Virus genome (UHGV): UHGV-1604764
DNA from: a virus
Direction: 5' to 3' (one strand)
DNA: 19,186 nucleotides
The position numbers and the translations under genes were made by a program. Of the stretch, positions 6,302 to 19,186 are shown in pieces. Each line of letters starts with the position of its first letter. Position 1 is the stretch's first letter. A model generated the notes under the pieces. That model worked only from the letters and a program-made list of their open reading frames with translations. It had not been told where the DNA came from and ran no database searches.

Positions 6302-6502
6302 ATGATCCTGAAACAAGATCTGAAATGGTCACCGGACGGTATGCGTGTTGAGGTCATTCGGGCCGGTGAGTATGACGACGGGGCGCTTCCTGCCCGGGTG
6401 CAGGAGATTGCACTTCAGGCCGGGTTAGCAGAGCGCGGAACCAGTGCAAAAAGCAGTAAAGCGACAAAAGAGAAAAAAGCCACGACCAGTAAAGAGGGCT
6501 GA
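6302..6502 (+). CDS. Hypothetical small protein (66 aa, Lys/Ser/Thr-rich C-terminus)
   Basis: ORF fills the capsid-to-connector gap and its stop lies 2 nt before the next start. Weak RBS. No family recognised. Confidence 0.45.
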   Translation: MILKQDLKWSPDGMRVEVIRAGEYDDGALPARVQEIALQAGLAERGTSAKSSKATKEKKATTSKEG

Positions 6503-10706: not shown

Positions 10707-12654
10707 ATTTGAGCTTAAGGCGTTGATCACCGGTGTCGACAGGCTTTCTCCCGCGCTGTCGAAAATGCAAAAGAAAATCCGGGGATTTAAACGCCAGGCG
10801 GAAGAAGCGTCACAGGGTGGGCTGGCGCTTGGTGGCGGACTGGCAGCGGGTCTGACGCTTTCCCTGAAATCTTATGCCGATCAGGAAAACGCCGCCACCG
10901 GGCTGAAAGTCGCCATGATGGATGCGAACGGCGAGGTTGGAAAGAGCTTTCAGGACATCAATAAACTGGCTATTGGCCTGGGTAACCAGCTACCCGGTAC
11001 AACGGCTGATTTCCAGAACATGATGCAGATGCTGGTGCGTCAGGGGATCCCGGCAGAAAACATTCTTGGTGGTGTGGGTAAAGCGACAGCTTATCTTGCG
11101 GTACAACTGAAAAAAACACCGGAAGCGGCTGCTGAGTTTGCTGCAAAGATGCAGGATGCTACCGGAACGGCGTCAGAAGACATGATGGGGCTGTTCGACA
11201 CTATCCAGAAGGCGTTTTATCTGGGCGTTGACGATACCAACATGTTGTCCTTCTTCACTAAAACCAGTTCTGTTCTGAAGATGGTGAACAAGGACGGTCT
11301 TCAGGCTGCACAGAGCCTTGCCCCCATCAGCGTCATGATGGATCAGATGGGGATGAACGGGGAGTCGGCAGGTAATGCCCTGCGAAAAGTTATCCAGTCC
11401 GGATTAAGCGTTAAGAAAATCAGGGACGTCAATAAAGTCATGGCCCGCCAGAGACTCGGGGTACAGCTCGATTTTACTGACGGCAAAGGAAGTTTTGGCG
11501 GTCTTGATAACATGTTCAGGCAACTGGCAAAGCTGCGAAAACTGACCGACGTTAAGCGAACAGGTGTACTTAAGGCAATATTTGGTGATGATGCCGAAAC
11601 CCTTCAGGTGGTCAATGCACTAATCGATAAAGGAAAGGATGGCTACGATCAGATCCAGCAGAAGATGAATAAACAGGCCAGCCTGAATAAACGTGTTCAG
11701 GCACAGCTTGGTACGCTGTCCAACCTGTGGGAGGCAATGACGGGGACCGCAACTAACGGCCTTGCGGCTATTGGCGGCGCATTTTCTGGTGACGCCAAAA
11801 ATATCACGCAATGGCTGGGGGAGTTGGGGGAAAAATTCACGAAGTTTGCGGATGAAAATCCCCGGGTTATTCGCGGCGTCGTCGGGCTTGCTGCCGGTCT
11901 TGCGATTCTGAAACTGGGATTGATGGGCGTGGGCAGTGCCATCAGTATCGTCAGCAGGATCATGTCGATGACGCCGATTGGCATGATTGCGACGGCGATT
12001 GCCTTGGCTGCGGGATTAATTATCACTAACTGGGATGTTGTTGGACCTTATTTCAAGAAGCTCTGGGAAACCATTGGTCCTTATTTTGAGGCTGGCTGGG
12101 AACTTCTGAAGAAGGTTTTTGCCTGGTCGCCGCTGGGGATGGTAATCAATAACTGGGGACCGGTTGTTAAGTGGTTTCAGGATATGTGGGACAAGCTGAA
12201 GCCAATTATTGAGTGGTTTACCGACAGTTCCGGTGACACGGTCGATGCCATTAACTCGGCGCAGTGGGGCGCGGGTGCTTATGATGCTTATGGGACGGGA
12301 ATACCGCCACGGGGATACACTCCTTATCCGGCGCAGTCAAACAACGCCTCCGGTGACACGGTCGATGCCATTAACTCTGCGCAGTGGGGCGCGGGTGCTT
12401 ATGATGCTTATGGGACGGGAATACCGGCGCGGGGATACACACCTTATCCGGCGGTAGATCCGGCTCAGTCAAACAACGCCTCCGATGCTACAGGCCCGAA
12501 TCCCTTCATGATTAACAAAGCTTCTGCGCCAAAAGTTGACGGTGAGATCAAGGTCTCTTTTGTGAATTCGCCTCCGGGTATGCGGGTTATGGAAACGCGA
12601 TCCAGCGGTTTTGATATAAATCACGATGTTGGCTATACGCATATTGGCAGATGA
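10699..12654 (+). CDS. Tail tape measure protein
   Basis: 651 aa. Ala/Gly/Gln-rich helical N-terminal region, hydrophobic segment (VIRGVVGLAAGLAILKLGLMGVGSAISIV...IATAIALAAGLIITNW), located after the chaperone/frameshift pair. Contains an internal tandem duplication. Confidence 0.85.
   Translation: MAEFELKALITGVDRLSPALSKMQKKIRGFKRQAEEASQGGLALGGGLAAGLTLSLKSYADQENAATGLKVAMMDANGEVGKSFQDINKLAIGLGNQLPGTTADFQNMMQMLVRQGIPAENILGGVGKATAYLAVQLKKTPEAAAEFAAKMQDATGTASEDMMGLFDTIQKAFYLGVDDTNMLSFFTKTSSVLKMVNKDGLQAAQSLAPISVMMDQMGMNGESAGNALRKVIQSGLSVKKIRDVNKVMARQRLGVQLDFTDGKGSFGGLDNMFRQLAKLRKLTDVKRTGVLKAIFGDDAETLQVVNALIDKGKDGYDQIQQKMNKQASLNKRVQAQLGTLSNLWEAMTGTATNGLAAIGGAFSGDAKNITQWLGELGEKFTKFADENPRVIRGVVGLAAGLAILKLGLMGVGSAISIVSRIMSMTPIGMIATAIALAAGLIITNWDVVGPYFKKLWETIGPYFEAGWELLKKVFAWSPLGMVINNWGPVVKWFQDMWDKLKPIIEWFTDSSGDTVDAINSAQWGAGAYDAYGTGIPPRGYTPYPAQSNNASGDTVDAINSAQWGAGAYDAYGTGIPARGYTPYPAVDPAQSNNASDATGPNPFMINKASAPKVDGEIKVSFVNSPPGMRVMETRSSGFDINHDVGYTHIGR
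12229..12480 (+). repeat. In-frame tandem duplication inside the tape measure gene (120-nt unit, then 132-nt unit)
   Basis: Copy 1 at 12229-12348 and copy 2 at 12349-12480 differ by 4 substitutions and a 12-nt in-frame insertion. Encodes SGDTVDAINSAQWGAGAYDAYGTGIP(P/A)RGYTPYPA(VDPA)QSNNA twice. Confidence 0.9.
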
Positions 12655-12670
12655 CGGAACCAGATATAAT
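12644..12670 (+). promoter_or_regulatory. Candidate sigma70-type promoter for the moron gene
   Basis: -35-like TTGGCA (12644-12649), 15-nt spacer, perfect -10 TATAAT (12665-12670). Lies in the last codons of the tape measure gene, about 37 nt upstream of the moron start codon. Confidence 0.45.
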
Positions 12671-12706
12671 TTGTCTTTAAGTTTGTTATCAACTGAAGGG
12701 AAATCT

Positions 12707-13084
12707 ATGGGTCTGTTACATGCCATTATAGGTAATGCCGGTGAAATTAATGCATCAGATGCACAACAGGAATTAGGGGCTGTTTTAGGTGAGGGAGAAA
12801 ATGTCGAACTTGCCTATAAACTCATTCGTGACCAAATTATTCTGACTAACAGAAGGTTAATTTTTATTGATAAGCAGGGTGTCACAGGGAAAAAAGTAGA
12901 GTATCGTTCGATTCCTTATAAATCTGTGACAAACTTTTCTATTGAAACCGCCGGGCATCTTGATCTTGATGCTGAAATGAAGATATGGATTTCTGGTATT
13001 GCAGAACCGATAAAAAAACAGTTCAGTAAAGGAGCAAACATTTATAAATTGCAGGCTCATCTGGCTCAAAAAATAGCAGGGTAA
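12707..13084 (+). CDS. Moron-encoded soluble protein, bacterial PH-like domain (bPH_1/DUF1696-like), function unknown
   Basis: 125 aa from ATG 12707 (AAGGGA RBS). The ORF-track start at 12626 lies inside the tape measure gene and is rejected. About 40% GC against mid-50s% in flanking genes. Motifs LTNRRLIFIDKQGVTGKK, SIPY, ETAGHLDLDAEMKIWISG recall the bPH_1 family (from memory). Confidence 0.6.
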   Translation: MGLLHAIIGNAGEINASDAQQELGAVLGEGENVELAYKLIRDQIILTNRRLIFIDKQGVTGKKVEYRSIPYKSVTNFSIETAGHLDLDAEMKIWISGIAEPIKKQFSKGANIYKLQAHLAQKIAG

Positions 13085-13110
13085 ACCTTACATTAATTTA
13101 TGTCTTTCAT

Positions 13111-13132
13111 GCCCACTTCGGTGGGCTTTTTT
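13111..13132 (+). terminator. Rho-independent terminator downstream of the moron gene
   Basis: GCCCAC-TTCG-GTGGGC (6-bp G/C stem, TTCG tetraloop) followed directly by TTTTTT, 27 nt after the moron stop and 16 nt before the next start codon. Confidence 0.7.
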
Positions 13133-13147
13133 ATATCCGGAGTTTAT

Positions 13148-14476
13148 ATGACGTGGAAAGACAGGCTTCAGGACGCGTCATTTCGCGGTGTGCCGTTTAA
13201 GGTTGAAGAAGAAAGTGCGGGAACAGGTCGCCGTGTGGAAACACACGAATATCCGAACCGCGACAAACCCTATACCGAAGATCTGGGAAAAGTCACTTTC
13301 CGCCCGTCCATCACGGCTTATGTGGTGGGCGATGACTGCTTTGACCAGCGCGATCGCCTGATTGACGCGCTGAATAAACCCGGTCCCGGCACGCTTGTCC
13401 ACCCGACTTACGGTGAGCTGAAAGTCTGTGTTGACGGAGAGGTTCGGGTCAGCACATCGAAAAGTGAAGGGCGTATTGTCCGCTTTGACCTGAAGTTTGT
13501 CGAAGCGGGAGAACTCTCTTACCCCACATCAGGTGCGGCGACGGCGCAGACGCTGATGTCATCCTGTTCTGCACTGGATGACTGCATCAGTGACAGCTTC
13601 AGCGGTTTCAGTATCGATGGTGTGGCGGATTTCGTGCAGAACGACGTTATCGGTAATGCCAGCATAATGCTGGGGTATGTTTCTGATGCGATGAAAGTGG
13701 TGGATTCTGCCGTATCGGATGCCGCCAGGCTGTTGCAGGGGGATATCTCGGTACTTCTGCCGCCGCCATCGTCAGGCAAAAATTTCGTTGAGCAGGTGCA
13801 GAAAATGTGGCGTACCGGGAAACGCCTTTATGGTAACGCCAGCGACCTGGTCACCATGATCAAAACGCTTTCCGGTGTCAGCCTCGGCAGCGATCTGCAA
13901 CCGCGCGGCGTCTGGAAAACGGACAGTAAAACCACCGCCACGGCGACGCAGCAGCGTAACGTGGTTGCCAGCACCCTTCGTGCGACCGCAATCAGCGAAG
14001 CGGCGTATGCCGTCACCCGATTGCCTGCGCCAACAACTTCCGCGGTGATGCAGAATGCCGCAGTGGGGCAGTCAACAACTTCCGCGCAGAGCACCGGCTG
14101 GCCTTCCGTCACGCATCCGGCACTGAACAATGCACCGGCGGTGAAAAACACGGTTGACCTGCCAACGTGGGAAGAACTGACTGACATTCGCGACACACTG
14201 AATACGGCAATTGATAAGGAGTTGTCCCGTACAACCAGTGATGCGCTGTTTCTGGCGCTGCGCCGGGTGAAAGCAGATCTGAATGCGGATATCAACACGC
14301 GCCTTGAACAGTCTGCTCGGATCATTCAGCGCACGCCGGATGAGGTCTTACCCGCGCTGGTGCTGGCGGCGACCTGGTTTGATAACGCGGCGCGTGACGC
14401 GGACATTATCCGGCGTAATGCCATTACGCATCCCGGCTTTGTGCCGGTGATCCCTCTGAAGGTGCCAGTGCAATGA
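13148..14476 (+). CDS. DNA circulation protein (Mu gp43-like)
   Basis: Start set to ATG 13148 (GGAG 5 nt upstream). ORF-track 13100 would read through the terminator hairpin. N-terminus MTWKDRLQDASFRGVPFKV...GRRVETHEYPNRDKPYTEDLG...GPGTLVHPTYG matches the DNA-circulation N-terminal domain. Confidence 0.8.
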   Translation: MTWKDRLQDASFRGVPFKVEEESAGTGRRVETHEYPNRDKPYTEDLGKVTFRPSITAYVVGDDCFDQRDRLIDALNKPGPGTLVHPTYGELKVCVDGEVRVSTSKSEGRIVRFDLKFVEAGELSYPTSGAATAQTLMSSCSALDDCISDSFSGFSIDGVADFVQNDVIGNASIMLGYVSDAMKVVDSAVSDAARLLQGDISVLLPPPSSGKNFVEQVQKMWRTGKRLYGNASDLVTMIKTLSGVSLGSDLQPRGVWKTDSKTTATATQQRNVVASTLRATAISEAAYAVTRLPAPTTSAVMQNAAVGQSTTSAQSTGWPSVTHPALNNAPAVKNTVDLPTWEELTDIRDTLNTAIDKELSRTTSDALFLALRRVKADLNADINTRLEQSARIIQRTPDEVLPALVLAATWFDNAARDADIIRRNAITHPGFVPVIPLKVPVQ

Positions 14477-18774: not shown

Positions 18775-19186
18775 ATGAAATATTTGTATGTTGATAATCT
18801 GGCGTACCCTTATGCCCTCCAGTCTGTTTACGCTGCAAAAGGCCAATGGCCCGAAGGTAAAGGCGTGGATATAGACGAAGCTATTTTCAGGGAATATTTC
18901 CATGATACGCCGCCTGACGGTAAGTACAGAATTACCGGAGACGATGGAATGCCAGCATGGGCAGATGTTCCACCGCCAACACGTGAAGAACAAATTGCAT
19001 CAGCCGCAACTAAAAAGCAGCAATTGATTAATCAGGCCAACGATTATATGAACAGTAGACAATGGGCTGGTAAAGCGGCTATTGGTCGTCTGAAAGGTGA
19101 GGAACTGGCGCAATATAATTTGTGGCTGGATTATCTGGACGCACTGGAGCTGGTCGATACTTCCAGTGCACCAGATATTGAATGGC
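18775..19186 (+). CDS. Tail fibre assembly protein (Tfa family), 3'-truncated by window end
   Basis: ATG 18775, 2 nt after the fibre stop. Open to the end of the window (137 codons, checked manually for stops). MKYLYVDN... N-terminus and ...DTSSAPDIEW tail are typical of Tfa chaperones. Confidence 0.75.
   Translation, partial: MKYLYVDNLAYPYALQSVYAAKGQWPEGKGVDIDEAIFREYFHDTPPDGKYRITGDDGMPAWADVPPPTREEQIASAATKKQQLINQANDYMNSRQWAGKAAIGRLKGEELAQYNLWLDYLDALELVDTSSAPDIEW

Follow-up and report, generated by a model that had tools for sequence, protein, structure and literature searches.

A PHb1 gene between the tape measure and DNA-circulation genes of an SfV-like Escherichia coli prophage: an apparent moron and candidate lysogen-protecting factor

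What is already known of small bacterial PH-like proteins that travel with phages? Both the fold of the PHb1 family and its association with phages were published in 2010, together with the core and binding-site residues of the PHb1 pentamers and the presence of family members in the lysogeny modules of the phages ul36 and Min1 (Xu et al., 2010; PMC2817789). In that work, PHb rings were proposed to cap a membrane-associated complex, and the acidic PHb1 site was argued to be unsuited to direct membrane binding. Our search of the literature for the function of bPH_1, DUF1696 or YvbH, or for anti-phage systems with PH domains, returned only this paper and indirect mentions. For CryoRhodopsin (CryoR), a pentameric membrane rhodopsin, a cap formed by a soluble PHb1-like pentamer has been predicted, and this putative transducer ring was compared directly with the PHb1 structure 3DCX (PMC12227055); in some homologues of SNIPE, PH domains are found in place of transmembrane anchors (PMC13190303). 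Among the morons, gp15 of HK97, which adjoins the tape measure gene, was captured from a bacterium, and its product prevents the entry of phage genomes (Juhala 2000; Cumby 2012; reviewed in PMC3594210). Two further parallels were considered and set aside: the abortive infection by Pdp(Sau) of S. aureus turned out to have no PH link, and the interference with tail assembly by Tab and Tai, while an analogous moron defence, is exerted by unrelated proteins.

The locus described here lies in a window of 19,186 nucleotides, the whole stretch of DNA that was analysed, which comes from an SfV-like E. coli prophage with an HK97-type head and a Mu-type contractile tail. A sequence-only reading had pointed to a single-gene, AT-rich insertion separating the tape measure and DNA-circulation genes, and such an insertion is indeed what we find, with one ORF for a 125-aa protein (Table 1). 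Morons in the sense of Juhala et al. (2000) are extra DNA compared with near-identical relatives, deviate in base composition, have a promoter and a terminator of their own and are expressed from the repressed prophage. The deviation in composition is pronounced, as positions 12655-13148 have a GC content of 37.0%, compared with 55.3% in the remaining window; the lowest-GC 494-nt stretch of the whole 19 kb begins at 12608, and the GC3 of the gene is 0.29. The cassette is compositionally foreign. Of its two neighbours, the tape measure gene contains a 120-nt tandem repeat (12229-12453), and an orthologue of the DNA circulation protein matches Pfam DNA_circ_N.

Table 1. Features of the cassette and its flanks; positions are those of the 19,186-nt window
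Feature	Position	Strand	Basis and remarks
Tail tape measure protein gene, 651 aa	10699..12654	+	Upstream flank; ORF list and RefSeq annotation of near-identical prophage
Putative sigma-70-like promoter	12644..12670	+	-35 TTGGCA (12644-12649), 15-nt spacer, -10 TATAAT (12665-12670)
AT-rich cassette (apparent moron)	12655..13110	+	GC 0.37 vs 0.55; SfII junction comparison; E. coli presence/absence
Shine-Dalgarno (SD) GAAGGG	12695..12700	+	6 nt ahead of ATG; kept in Edwardsiella cassettes
CDS, 125-aa PHb1 (Pfam bPH_1/DUF1696) protein	12707..13084	+	ATG at 12707, stop codon ends 13084; translation, Pfam, PHROG, PDB, AF2/Foldseek, dN/dS
Intrinsic-terminator-like hairpin GCCCAC-TTCG-GTGGGC + TTTTTT	13111..13132	+	Scanner and fold; stem-loop itself spans 13111-13126
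DNA circulation (Mu gp43-like) protein gene	13148..14476	+	Downstream flank; RefSeq annotation; own SD GGAG

Judged by its sequence, the product is a full-length, orthodox member of the PHb1 family. The resemblance to bPH_1/DUF1696 proteins had been put forward in the sequence-only reading, and the profile search bears it out: residues 3-122 align to positions 2-121 of the 122 positions of Pfam bPH_1 (PF08000), with a score of 163.2 bits (cut-off 27.7; E = 3e-48). The crystallized family members 3DCX (Shewanella loihica) and 3HSA (S. amazonensis) are matched with E values of about 1e-39 and an identity, read off the alignment, of roughly 60%; the alignment to 3DCX is ungapped, with 1:1 numbering. 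A longer ORF of 152 aa, starting from 12626, is not supported, as every homologue begins at MGL. The structure prediction and fold search that had been proposed for this protein lead to the same family. The AF2 model (pLDDT 82), for which the input alignment consisted of sequences without phage members, predicts strands between residues 12 and 107 and, behind them, a helix (112-124), that is, a PH fold with a beta-sandwich capped by a C-terminal helix, and its top Foldseek matches are 3DCX and 3HSA (TM 0.78-0.86). At the level of single residues, the buried network Glu31-Thr47-Arg50 is intact, as is the complete inter-protomer site with D42, D55, Q57, K63, E80, D86, D88 and E90 at identical numbering; the sole perimeter change at the published site is F85 to L. 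Given the identity to two pentameric crystal structures, the protein would be expected to form a dome-shaped ring with C5 symmetry. Proteins in which the PHb1 domain is naturally repeated five times in tandem support the pentamer as the working unit.

The protein has a pI of about 8 and is predicted to be soluble. The earlier statement that it has no transmembrane segments holds, with a maximum 19-residue Kyte-Doolittle mean of 0.58 and with homologues that crystallize as soluble rings, and no signal peptide was found either. A match to a virion structural or assembly family had been named as the outcome that would speak against an accessory gene; the search for such a match returned only PHROG 7115, a group of 'unknown function'. 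Likewise, NCBIfam yielded no matches, and a scan with PADLOC-DB v2 yielded no defence families at E <= 1.

Upstream of the ORF, the near-consensus promoter seen in the sequence-only reading is present. No other site in the window, on whichever strand, matches the consensus in at least 11/12 positions, and the probability that one would occur by chance in the 311 nt ahead of the ORF is about 0.003. Its -35 hexamer overlaps the final codons of the tape measure gene, and transcription is predicted to start at about 12677. The poor part is the spacer: a length of 15 nt is suboptimal and usually gives weak sigma-70 activity, and the promoter scanner, which demands 16-18 nt, did not report the site for this reason. 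Downstream, the claim of a hairpin and T-run terminator was correct as to its presence behind the ORF, where it ends 15 nt ahead of the DNA-circulation start codon, but the terminator is not peculiar to the cassette. The empty site of SfII contains a nearly identical hairpin and T-run, annotated there as a 'putative rho-independent terminator'. Thus, while a terminator as expected of a moron is found, its equivalent at the empty site makes it a feature of the slot that was not brought by the cassette alone, and it is not by itself evidence for an autonomous unit. An Rfam scan of positions 12300-13400 gave only a sub-threshold isrB hit, located on the terminator (24 vs 35 bits, E = 0.067), which we rejected as a similarity of hairpins.

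The cassette is also extra DNA when set against near-identical relatives. In SfV, SfII and SfI, the flanks of which are 96-97% identical, the site is empty, with about 26 nt in the cassette's place. Among 5,426 complete E. coli genomes, the tape measure/DNA-circulation junction is found in about 1,100 and the PHb1 gene in 28, which amounts to the clean presence/absence indel that had been anticipated for the junction. The opposite picture, a gene that is universal and of native GC in related tail modules, does not agree with its absence from the three phages and its low GC. The virion does not need the cassette. The slot is also filled by at least four different cassettes, which were counted in 85, 72, 55 and 179 genomes, respectively; scanning the four with Pfam and PADLOC resulted in one OB-fold (tRNA_anti-like) match and no defence match. 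The junction in SfV-like prophages is a hot spot for cargo, with no fewer than five cassettes that can replace one another, and should any of them prove protective, the slot would become a site for mining new lysogen-encoded functions. In 4 of the 28 genomes, the PHb1 gene is interrupted by IS1. All E. coli matches to the PH gene that were inspected fall in this prophage slot, and no E. coli locus is among the best 80 genome homologues.

Beyond E. coli, phages of Edwardsiella carry a copy with 88-90% identity in the same slot, among them EPP-1, which was isolated as a plaque-forming phage. Codon comparisons with these copies indicate that the gene is under strong purifying selection: between the window and EPP-1, dN is 0.064 with saturated dS (omega 0.016), and for the pair of the window and L010, omega is 0.031. 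The signals around the gene are conserved as well: the -35, the -10, the SD and the terminator are kept in the Edwardsiella cassettes while the neighbouring non-coding bases and the synonymous sites have diverged. Despite the saturation of the latter, the -35 is identical, the -10 is retained in five of six positions (TATAAC), the spacing is unchanged, and the hairpin with its T-run is 100% identical.

Stand-alone relatives with 60-72% identity, in which the functional residues are kept, are encoded in the chromosomes of many phyla. Their neighbours are housekeeping genes, such as those for SOD, an AlaX-like protein, 6PGD, DUF1871 and an S1 protein, and around 80 genomic homologues we found no conserved partner gene beyond genus-level synteny. 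To see the family in its phage contexts, we surveyed 80 PHb1 loci from IMG/VR, many of which are redundant and in some of which the PH gene lies at the edge of a prophage prediction and may belong to the host; 13 are in the SfV-type tail slot and 67 elsewhere. In 45 of the 67 non-slot loci, a repressor (HTH and/or ImmA/M78 protease) is encoded at most five genes upstream, and in nearly all of these it is co-oriented with the PH gene. An integrase follows at most four genes downstream in 20 of the 67, and in six the PH gene adjoins a gene for an Ltp-type exclusion lipoprotein. Other neighbours in viral contigs are Septu, AbiD, PDC-M67 and SIR2. The neighbours vary across the survey, with no fixed partner gene; a two-gene system of PH and SIR2, as suggested by Vibrio phage PE001, was discarded since the pairing did not recur. 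Temperate phages thus carry PHb1 genes repeatedly, for the most part within the lysogeny module and in the same orientation as repressor and integrase.

What, then, is the most plausible account of this gene? We lean towards a classic moron, in which a chromosomal bacterial PHb1 gene would have been captured into the tape measure/DNA-circulation junction of an SfV-like prophage, with steps of transcription and protection proposed on top. As to transcription, we consider it quite likely that the cassette's own promoter drives the gene in the lysogen, that the hairpin keeps this transcript out of the baseplate genes, and that Q-antiterminated late transcription passes through the hairpin. As to the action of the product, the mechanism we prefer is a tentative one. 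The protein would assemble as a cytoplasmic pentameric ring, the conserved acidic rim of which would dock on a host protein that is itself conserved, probably an oligomer in the inner membrane, and in this way would protect the lysogen from superinfecting phages from the cytoplasmic side, be it by exclusion or by an abortive-type response. It would work alone, without a partner gene. We regard the protein as a reasonable candidate for a factor that protects the lysogen, though an unproven one, and the 'undescribed accessory system' of the sequence-only reading as a hypothesis.

Several observations count against protection. To our knowledge, all characterised exclusion proteins are membrane-anchored, unlike the present soluble protein; the anchor that marks HK97 gp15, P22 SieA, Sie2009 and Ltp is not found in its 125 residues, and PADLOC and NCBIfam are without a match. 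The acidic site, on the argument of Xu et al. (2010), is ill suited to binding a membrane directly. Only 28 of the 5,426 genomes have the gene, four of them in a copy disrupted by IS1, and the lysogeny-module and defence neighbourhoods in which its relatives reside are cargo hot spots that include non-defence genes.

A different, and in our estimate rather unlikely, account takes the gene for host-fitness cargo unrelated to phages, an extra general PHb1 copy that would aid the lysogen under envelope, antibiotic or other stress in the role that the chromosomal copies have in other bacteria. Its close identity to stand-alone chromosomal genes in so many phyla, with all functional residues kept, speaks for this account, and as the E. 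coli matches that were inspected all lie in the prophage slot, with no E. coli locus among the best 80 genome homologues, the prophage copy could add a function that is otherwise missing. In addition, the protein is undiverged from its chromosomal relatives, unlike gp15 with respect to YebO, so that a general cellular role fits as well as a phage-directed one; such a role might presumably lie in envelope stress, as for the sigma-W-regulated YozO. However, host fitness gives no reason for the regular occurrence of the family next to exclusion and defence genes in lysogeny modules and sits poorly with the rarity of the gene in E. coli, and we know of no stress phenotype for any PHb1 protein. It is improbable that the promoter is inactive and that the gene is instead read within the Q-antiterminated late operon as a helper in lytic growth, for instance by acting against a defence of the host, by modulating one of its membrane complexes during lysis or assembly, or by setting up the next infection. 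The gene does lie on the strand of the late operon, between two late genes and with its own SD, the plaque-forming EPP-1 carries it, the promoter spacer is suboptimal, and since the hairpin is found even at the cargo-free junction, late transcription must pass it anyway. Yet most other phages hold the gene not among the late genes but in the lysogeny module, co-oriented with repressor and integrase, the -35 and -10 are kept across saturated divergence, and SfV, SfII and SfI are functional phages without it. Finally, a virion or tail-assembly component, as the location inside the tail module might suggest, or else a decaying neutral passenger, to which rarity and the IS1-disrupted copies could point, is highly improbable, as the gene is missing from closely related functional phages, has a foreign GC content, no structural-family match and a PHROG of 'unknown function', and as neutral decay is excluded by a dN/dS of 0.02-0.03 at saturated dS and by functional residues that have stayed intact.

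Structures of PF08000 have been solved since 2008-2010, and temperate phages of very different hosts have repeatedly acquired this conserved protein, at sites typical of prophage-expressed cargo. A more speculative and doubtful extension of the protection reading is that PHb1 rings form a widespread and so far unrecognised class of single-gene protection factors carried by prophages, from the lysogeny modules of Firmicutes phages to enterobacterial tail-operon morons. From the cytoplasmic side, they would cap a conserved oligomer in the inner membrane on which an incoming phage depends, either to bring in its genome or for its early development. If true, this class would represent an exclusion mechanism without a membrane anchor. 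The E. coli copy offers a convenient entry to the function of the family, as its host is tractable, a single gene is involved, empty sites occur naturally as controls, and four other cassettes are found at the same site; should this lead nowhere, the cassette will be one more ordinary moron.

How does this locus compare with the systems described so far? The closest in structure are the PHb1 proteins 3DCX and 3HSA, which are single-domain proteins of equal length and superpose on the predicted fold with a TM of about 0.8; these are chromosomal, whereas the present gene resides in a prophage tail operon. ORF124 of ul36 (Lactococcus), ORF77 of Min1 (Microbacterium) and B. subtilis YjqA, encoded beside PBSX, belong to the same family and are likewise non-essential phage cargo, but they are only 33-41% identical to the E. 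coli prophage protein. Copies of this type lie between repressor and integrase or at the genome end, in contrast to the tail-gene slot seen here, and, unlike them, the present copy, from a phage of a Gram-negative host, has promoter-like and terminator-like signals of its own. The exclusion genes of lactococcal and streptococcal phages (the sie2009 class, sie285 and ltp of TP-J34) share their niche with most phage PHb1 genes, and Sie285 even combines a transmembrane segment with a PHb domain, although it is only assigned as a sie gene, the exclusion phenotype in the source paper being limited to sie309 and sie312. The proteins of the sie2009 class and Ltp are membrane-anchored or lipoproteins, while ours is without an anchor, and we found no sequence match between it and the Ltp or Sie families. 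What the protein has in common with the CryoR transducers and the PH-bearing SNIPE homologues is the notion of a ring, or of a PH module, docking at the cytoplasmic face of a membrane or membrane protein; as those cases have been predicted or reflect swaps of domains, and as the systems are unrelated, this likeness is one of analogy. The moron of HK97 differs in its product, gp15 being an inner-membrane protein diverged from YebO, while the present protein is soluble and undiverged from its cellular relatives. In its genetic design, however, the PHb1 cassette resembles gp15: both are single small genes that adjoin the tape measure gene in a tail operon, with a deviant GC content, a promoter and a terminator (putative here), an origin in bacterial chromosomes, and dispensability for the virion.

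What kind of gene occupies the AT-rich interval between the tape measure and DNA-circulation genes of this SfV/SfII-like prophage late region, which combines an HK97-type head with a Mu-type contractile tail? A prophage in E. coli O19:H7 730V1 shares 98-99% identity with the window as a whole and 100% with its stretch 11900-13900. The GC content is 37.0% at 12655-13148 against 55.3% in the remaining window, and the 494-nt stretch of lowest GC in all 19 kb starts at 12608. As the sequence-only reading had proposed, a single ORF, already annotated as a "PH domain-containing protein", fits this segment.

The presence/absence polymorphism expected of a moron is borne out as well. In SfII, SfV, SfI and the E. 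coli phage 689R6 both flanks are 96-97% identical to ours and the PH segment is absent; in SfII, the tape measure stop codon is followed by about 26 nt, a hairpin and the DNA-circulation start. The junction region is matched in 1,097 of 5,426 complete E. coli genomes, the PH gene in only 28, where all copies are at least 99% identical and four are split by an IS1B insertion (e.g. EC_J_9, L094 2136-3289). At least four other single-gene cassettes use the junction (12655-13147) in other E. coli strains (loci L003, L004, L012, L013); the four listed in the table gave no match to a known defence family in PADLOC, and the PH cassette is the rarest of the measured alleles. As several different cassettes occupy the same slot across strains, this junction is a hot spot for cargo. 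One PH-bearing SfV-like tail module lies on a 70-kb "plasmid" record (L095, NZ_AP023208.1, pMTY18781-3); a phage-plasmid, a prophage caught after excision or an assembly error might each account for this.

Features of the tape-measure/DNA-circulation junction and alternative cassettes in other E. coli strains
Feature	Position	Strand	Description
Tape measure gene	ends 12654	+	upstream flank
Candidate promoter	12644-12649, 12665-12670	+	TTGGCA, 15-nt spacer, TATAAT; near-consensus match
Shine-Dalgarno sequence	6 nt 5' of PH-gene ATG	+	GAAGGG
PH gene	12707-13084	+	ATG to stop end; 125 aa
Terminator-like hairpin	13111-13132	+	GCCCAC-TTCG-GTGGGC + T6; 3' of PH gene
DNA-circulation gene	13148-14476	+	downstream flank
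Alternative cassette			164-aa protein, signal-peptide-like N-terminus; 85 genomes
Alternative cassette		reverse	OB-fold protein; 72 genomes
Alternative cassette			225-aa protein; 55 genomes
Alternative cassette			176-aa protein, with or without IS200 (IS200C); 179 genomes

Near its 3' end, the tape measure gene carries a 120-nt (40-aa) tandem repeat (12229-12453, 1.9 copies, 96% identity). In related PH-cassette prophages the tape measure ORFs measure 611, 651 and 691 aa, that is, steps of one repeat, exceptions being 655 aa at one locus and 591 or 594 aa at Edwardsiella-type loci; given this stepping, tail length or the function of the tape measure C-terminus may vary with repeat copy number. 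Among otherwise near-identical prophages, DNA-circulation ORFs differ in length by multiples of 14 aa (458, 472, 486, 500 aa), and near 14031-14086 the window is 84 nt shorter than the 730V1 prophage, in which a short stretch is duplicated. Elsewhere, the counterpart of a small ORF at 6302-6502, which separates the genes for the major capsid protein and the head-tail connector, carries a frameshift flag in the RefSeq annotation of the 730V1 prophage. The last 244 nt (18943-19186) are inverted, with 90% identity to the tail-fibre/tail-fibre-assembly region of the 730V1 prophage, and this stretch may be a host-range segment that inverts or has been rearranged; two promoter-like matches with a TATAAT -10 lie at 19073-19090.

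The PH-like product, which the sequence-only reading had likened to bPH_1/DUF1696 proteins, matches this Pfam family (PF08000, here PHb1) over its full length with 163 bits; PHROGs places it in family 7115, annotated as of unknown function, and profile searches of NCBIfam and PADLOC gave no match. In a PDB sequence search it aligns without gaps to the Shewanella PHb1 structures 3DCX and 3HSA (E ~1e-39), on which its AF2 model (pLDDT 82) superposes with a TM-score of ~0.8. Xu et al. (PMC2817789) highlight in PHb1 a buried E31-T47-R50 network and an inter-protomer site of D42, D55, Q57, K63, E80, D86, D88 and E90, and all of these residues are kept under 1:1 numbering. Hydropathy revealed no hydrophobic segment, in line with the predicted lack of transmembrane segments. 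The Pfam match, the kept residues, the superposition and the missing hydrophobic segment thus mark the protein, by sequence and model, as an orthodox group-1 PHb1 protein, its family membership being established on every testable feature. Group-1 PHb1 proteins form C5 dome-shaped rings in crystals. A library search returned many proteins of 740-1,000 aa with five tandem PHb1 repeats and others with 2-4; these multi-repeat proteins (P0121-P0173) have low-complexity linkers and, in some cases, hydrophobic, signal-peptide-like N-termini, and look eukaryotic. The five-repeat forms, for which we found no paper, would be covalent versions of the pentamer, and since natural proteins hold five tandem repeats, their architecture speaks for the ring as the functional unit.

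The claimed expression signals are present, although each with a reservation. The candidate promoter is the sole match of at least 11/12 to the consensus on both strands of the window, with a chance expectation of ~0.003 in the 311 nt 5' of the PH ORF, but its spacer is suboptimal; being outside the 16-18 nt accepted by the built-in promoter scanner, it went unseen there. The hairpin and T-run stand as described, but near-identical ones occupy the equivalent place in phages without the PH gene, so that they are not specific to the cassette. The PH-gene 3' UTR and terminator (13069-13131) also give a sub-threshold Rfam match to the Hfq-binding sRNA isrB (24.2 bits, E = 0.067; gathering score 35), probably mere hairpin similarity.

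How old is the cassette, and is it maintained? A protein with 88-90% identity is encoded at the equivalent junction of Edwardsiella phage EPP-1, of an Edwardsiella hoshinae contig and of one Logan assembly. Between the E. coli and Edwardsiella genes dS exceeds 2 (saturated), dN is 0.06-0.07 and omega 0.016-0.031; the -35 hexamer, the spacing, the Shine-Dalgarno sequence and the whole terminator are kept, the -10 reads TATAAT versus TATAAC, and the intervening bases have diverged. The low omega and the conserved signals argue for a functional protein with functional signals, rather than a decaying passenger. In EPP-1 (L005 3850-3945), the cassette is preceded by a ~60-nt non-coding relic of an E. 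coli-type tape measure 3' end (~80% identity), which includes the promoter and lies 3' of the stop that ends the tape measure gene of EPP-1 itself; the cassette thus moved between tail modules by recombination and carried its promoter region along.

Stand-alone chromosomal PHb1 genes, 60-72% identical, occur in Edaphovirga, Photobacterium, Clostridia, Bacillus, Neobacillus, Paenibacillus, Streptomyces and others; around the best 80 such homologs we found no conserved partner gene, only genus-level synteny with housekeeping genes. Among 80 loci in viral contigs, many of them redundant and some with PH genes at prophage-prediction edges that may be host genes, 13 are SfV-type tail slots. In 45 of the other 67, a repressor (HTH and/or ImmA-type M78 protease) lies within five genes upstream, nearly always co-oriented with the PH gene, and in 20 an integrase lies within four genes downstream. 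This survey broadens what Xu et al. (PMC2817789) had observed for ul36 and Min1, whose lysogeny modules contain PHb1. In six loci (L041, L044, L082, L083, L088, L092) the direct neighbor, inside a lysogeny module, is an Ltp-family gene annotated "host cell surface-exposed lipoprotein" (PF07553, the TP-J34 exclusion family); 11 are Bacillus PBSX-type, with the PH gene between poly-gamma-glutamate hydrolase (PghP) and amidase genes; other neighbors include Septu PtuAB, AbiD, PDC-M67 and a DEDDh exonuclease. In a Vibrio 186-like phage (10N.286.45.B12_PE001, L007 3950-6237), the PHb1 gene has the cI repressor on one side and, on the other, the gene for a 612-aa SIR2-domain protein (PADLOC Aga_SIR2/PDC-S65, E = 3e-64), then a 30-aa ORF and the integrase; the PHb1 and SIR2 genes could be a two-gene unit or merely adjacent cargo. 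A caveat to the association is that lysogeny modules gather cargo of all kinds.

Our analysis thus shows that the gene in this cargo slot is dispensable, was acquired horizontally, is maintained by selection and encodes an orthodox PHb1 protein. It is probably transcribed in the lysogen from its own promoter, with the hairpin stopping read-through into the baseplate genes and Q-modified late transcription passing it, as late transcription must do anyway, the same hairpin standing in the empty allele. More tentatively, and with distinctly less than even confidence, we propose that the PHb1 ring would bind a conserved host protein via its conserved acidic rim, probably where the inner membrane faces the cytoplasm, and would so protect the lysogen from other phages. 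Against the protection step, the protein is undiverged from its cellular relatives, and it has neither an anchor nor a profile match to known defence or exclusion families; moreover, the acidic site of PHb1 was deemed unsuited to direct membrane binding (Xu et al., PMC2817789). Cargo that serves host fitness under stress is a doubtful but serious rival, a general envelope-stress role being nearly as likely as phage protection because of that lack of divergence; in keeping with such a role, YozO is sigma-W regulated. A helper of the late operon with a dead promoter is improbable, weakened by the lysogeny-module placement in other phages and by the conserved -35/-10. A structural component or neutral passenger is very improbable, contradicted by the absence from SfV, SfII and SfI and by an omega of ~0.02.

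The PHb1 fold and its phage association were published in 2010 (Xu et al., PMC2817789); what the present analysis adds is the series of alleles in the tail slot, the finding that cassette and signals are conserved together across genera, and the wide reach of the association with lysogeny modules. Presence/absence, base composition and terminator are those of a moron, the promoter being an 11/12 match with a 15-nt spacer, and the cassette is a clean, testable candidate, at present an ordinary moron with cargo of no assigned function. For lysogen protection, known systems provide support by analogy only: next to its tape measure gene HK97 carries the moron gp15, which was acquired from a host and prevents genome entry (PMC3594210); sie285 is a TM-PHb fusion in sie position; in some SNIPE homologs PH domains stand in for TM anchors (PMC13190303); and, by prediction, a soluble pentamer resembling PHb1 caps a membrane rhodopsin, itself pentameric, through beta-augmentation (PMC12227055).
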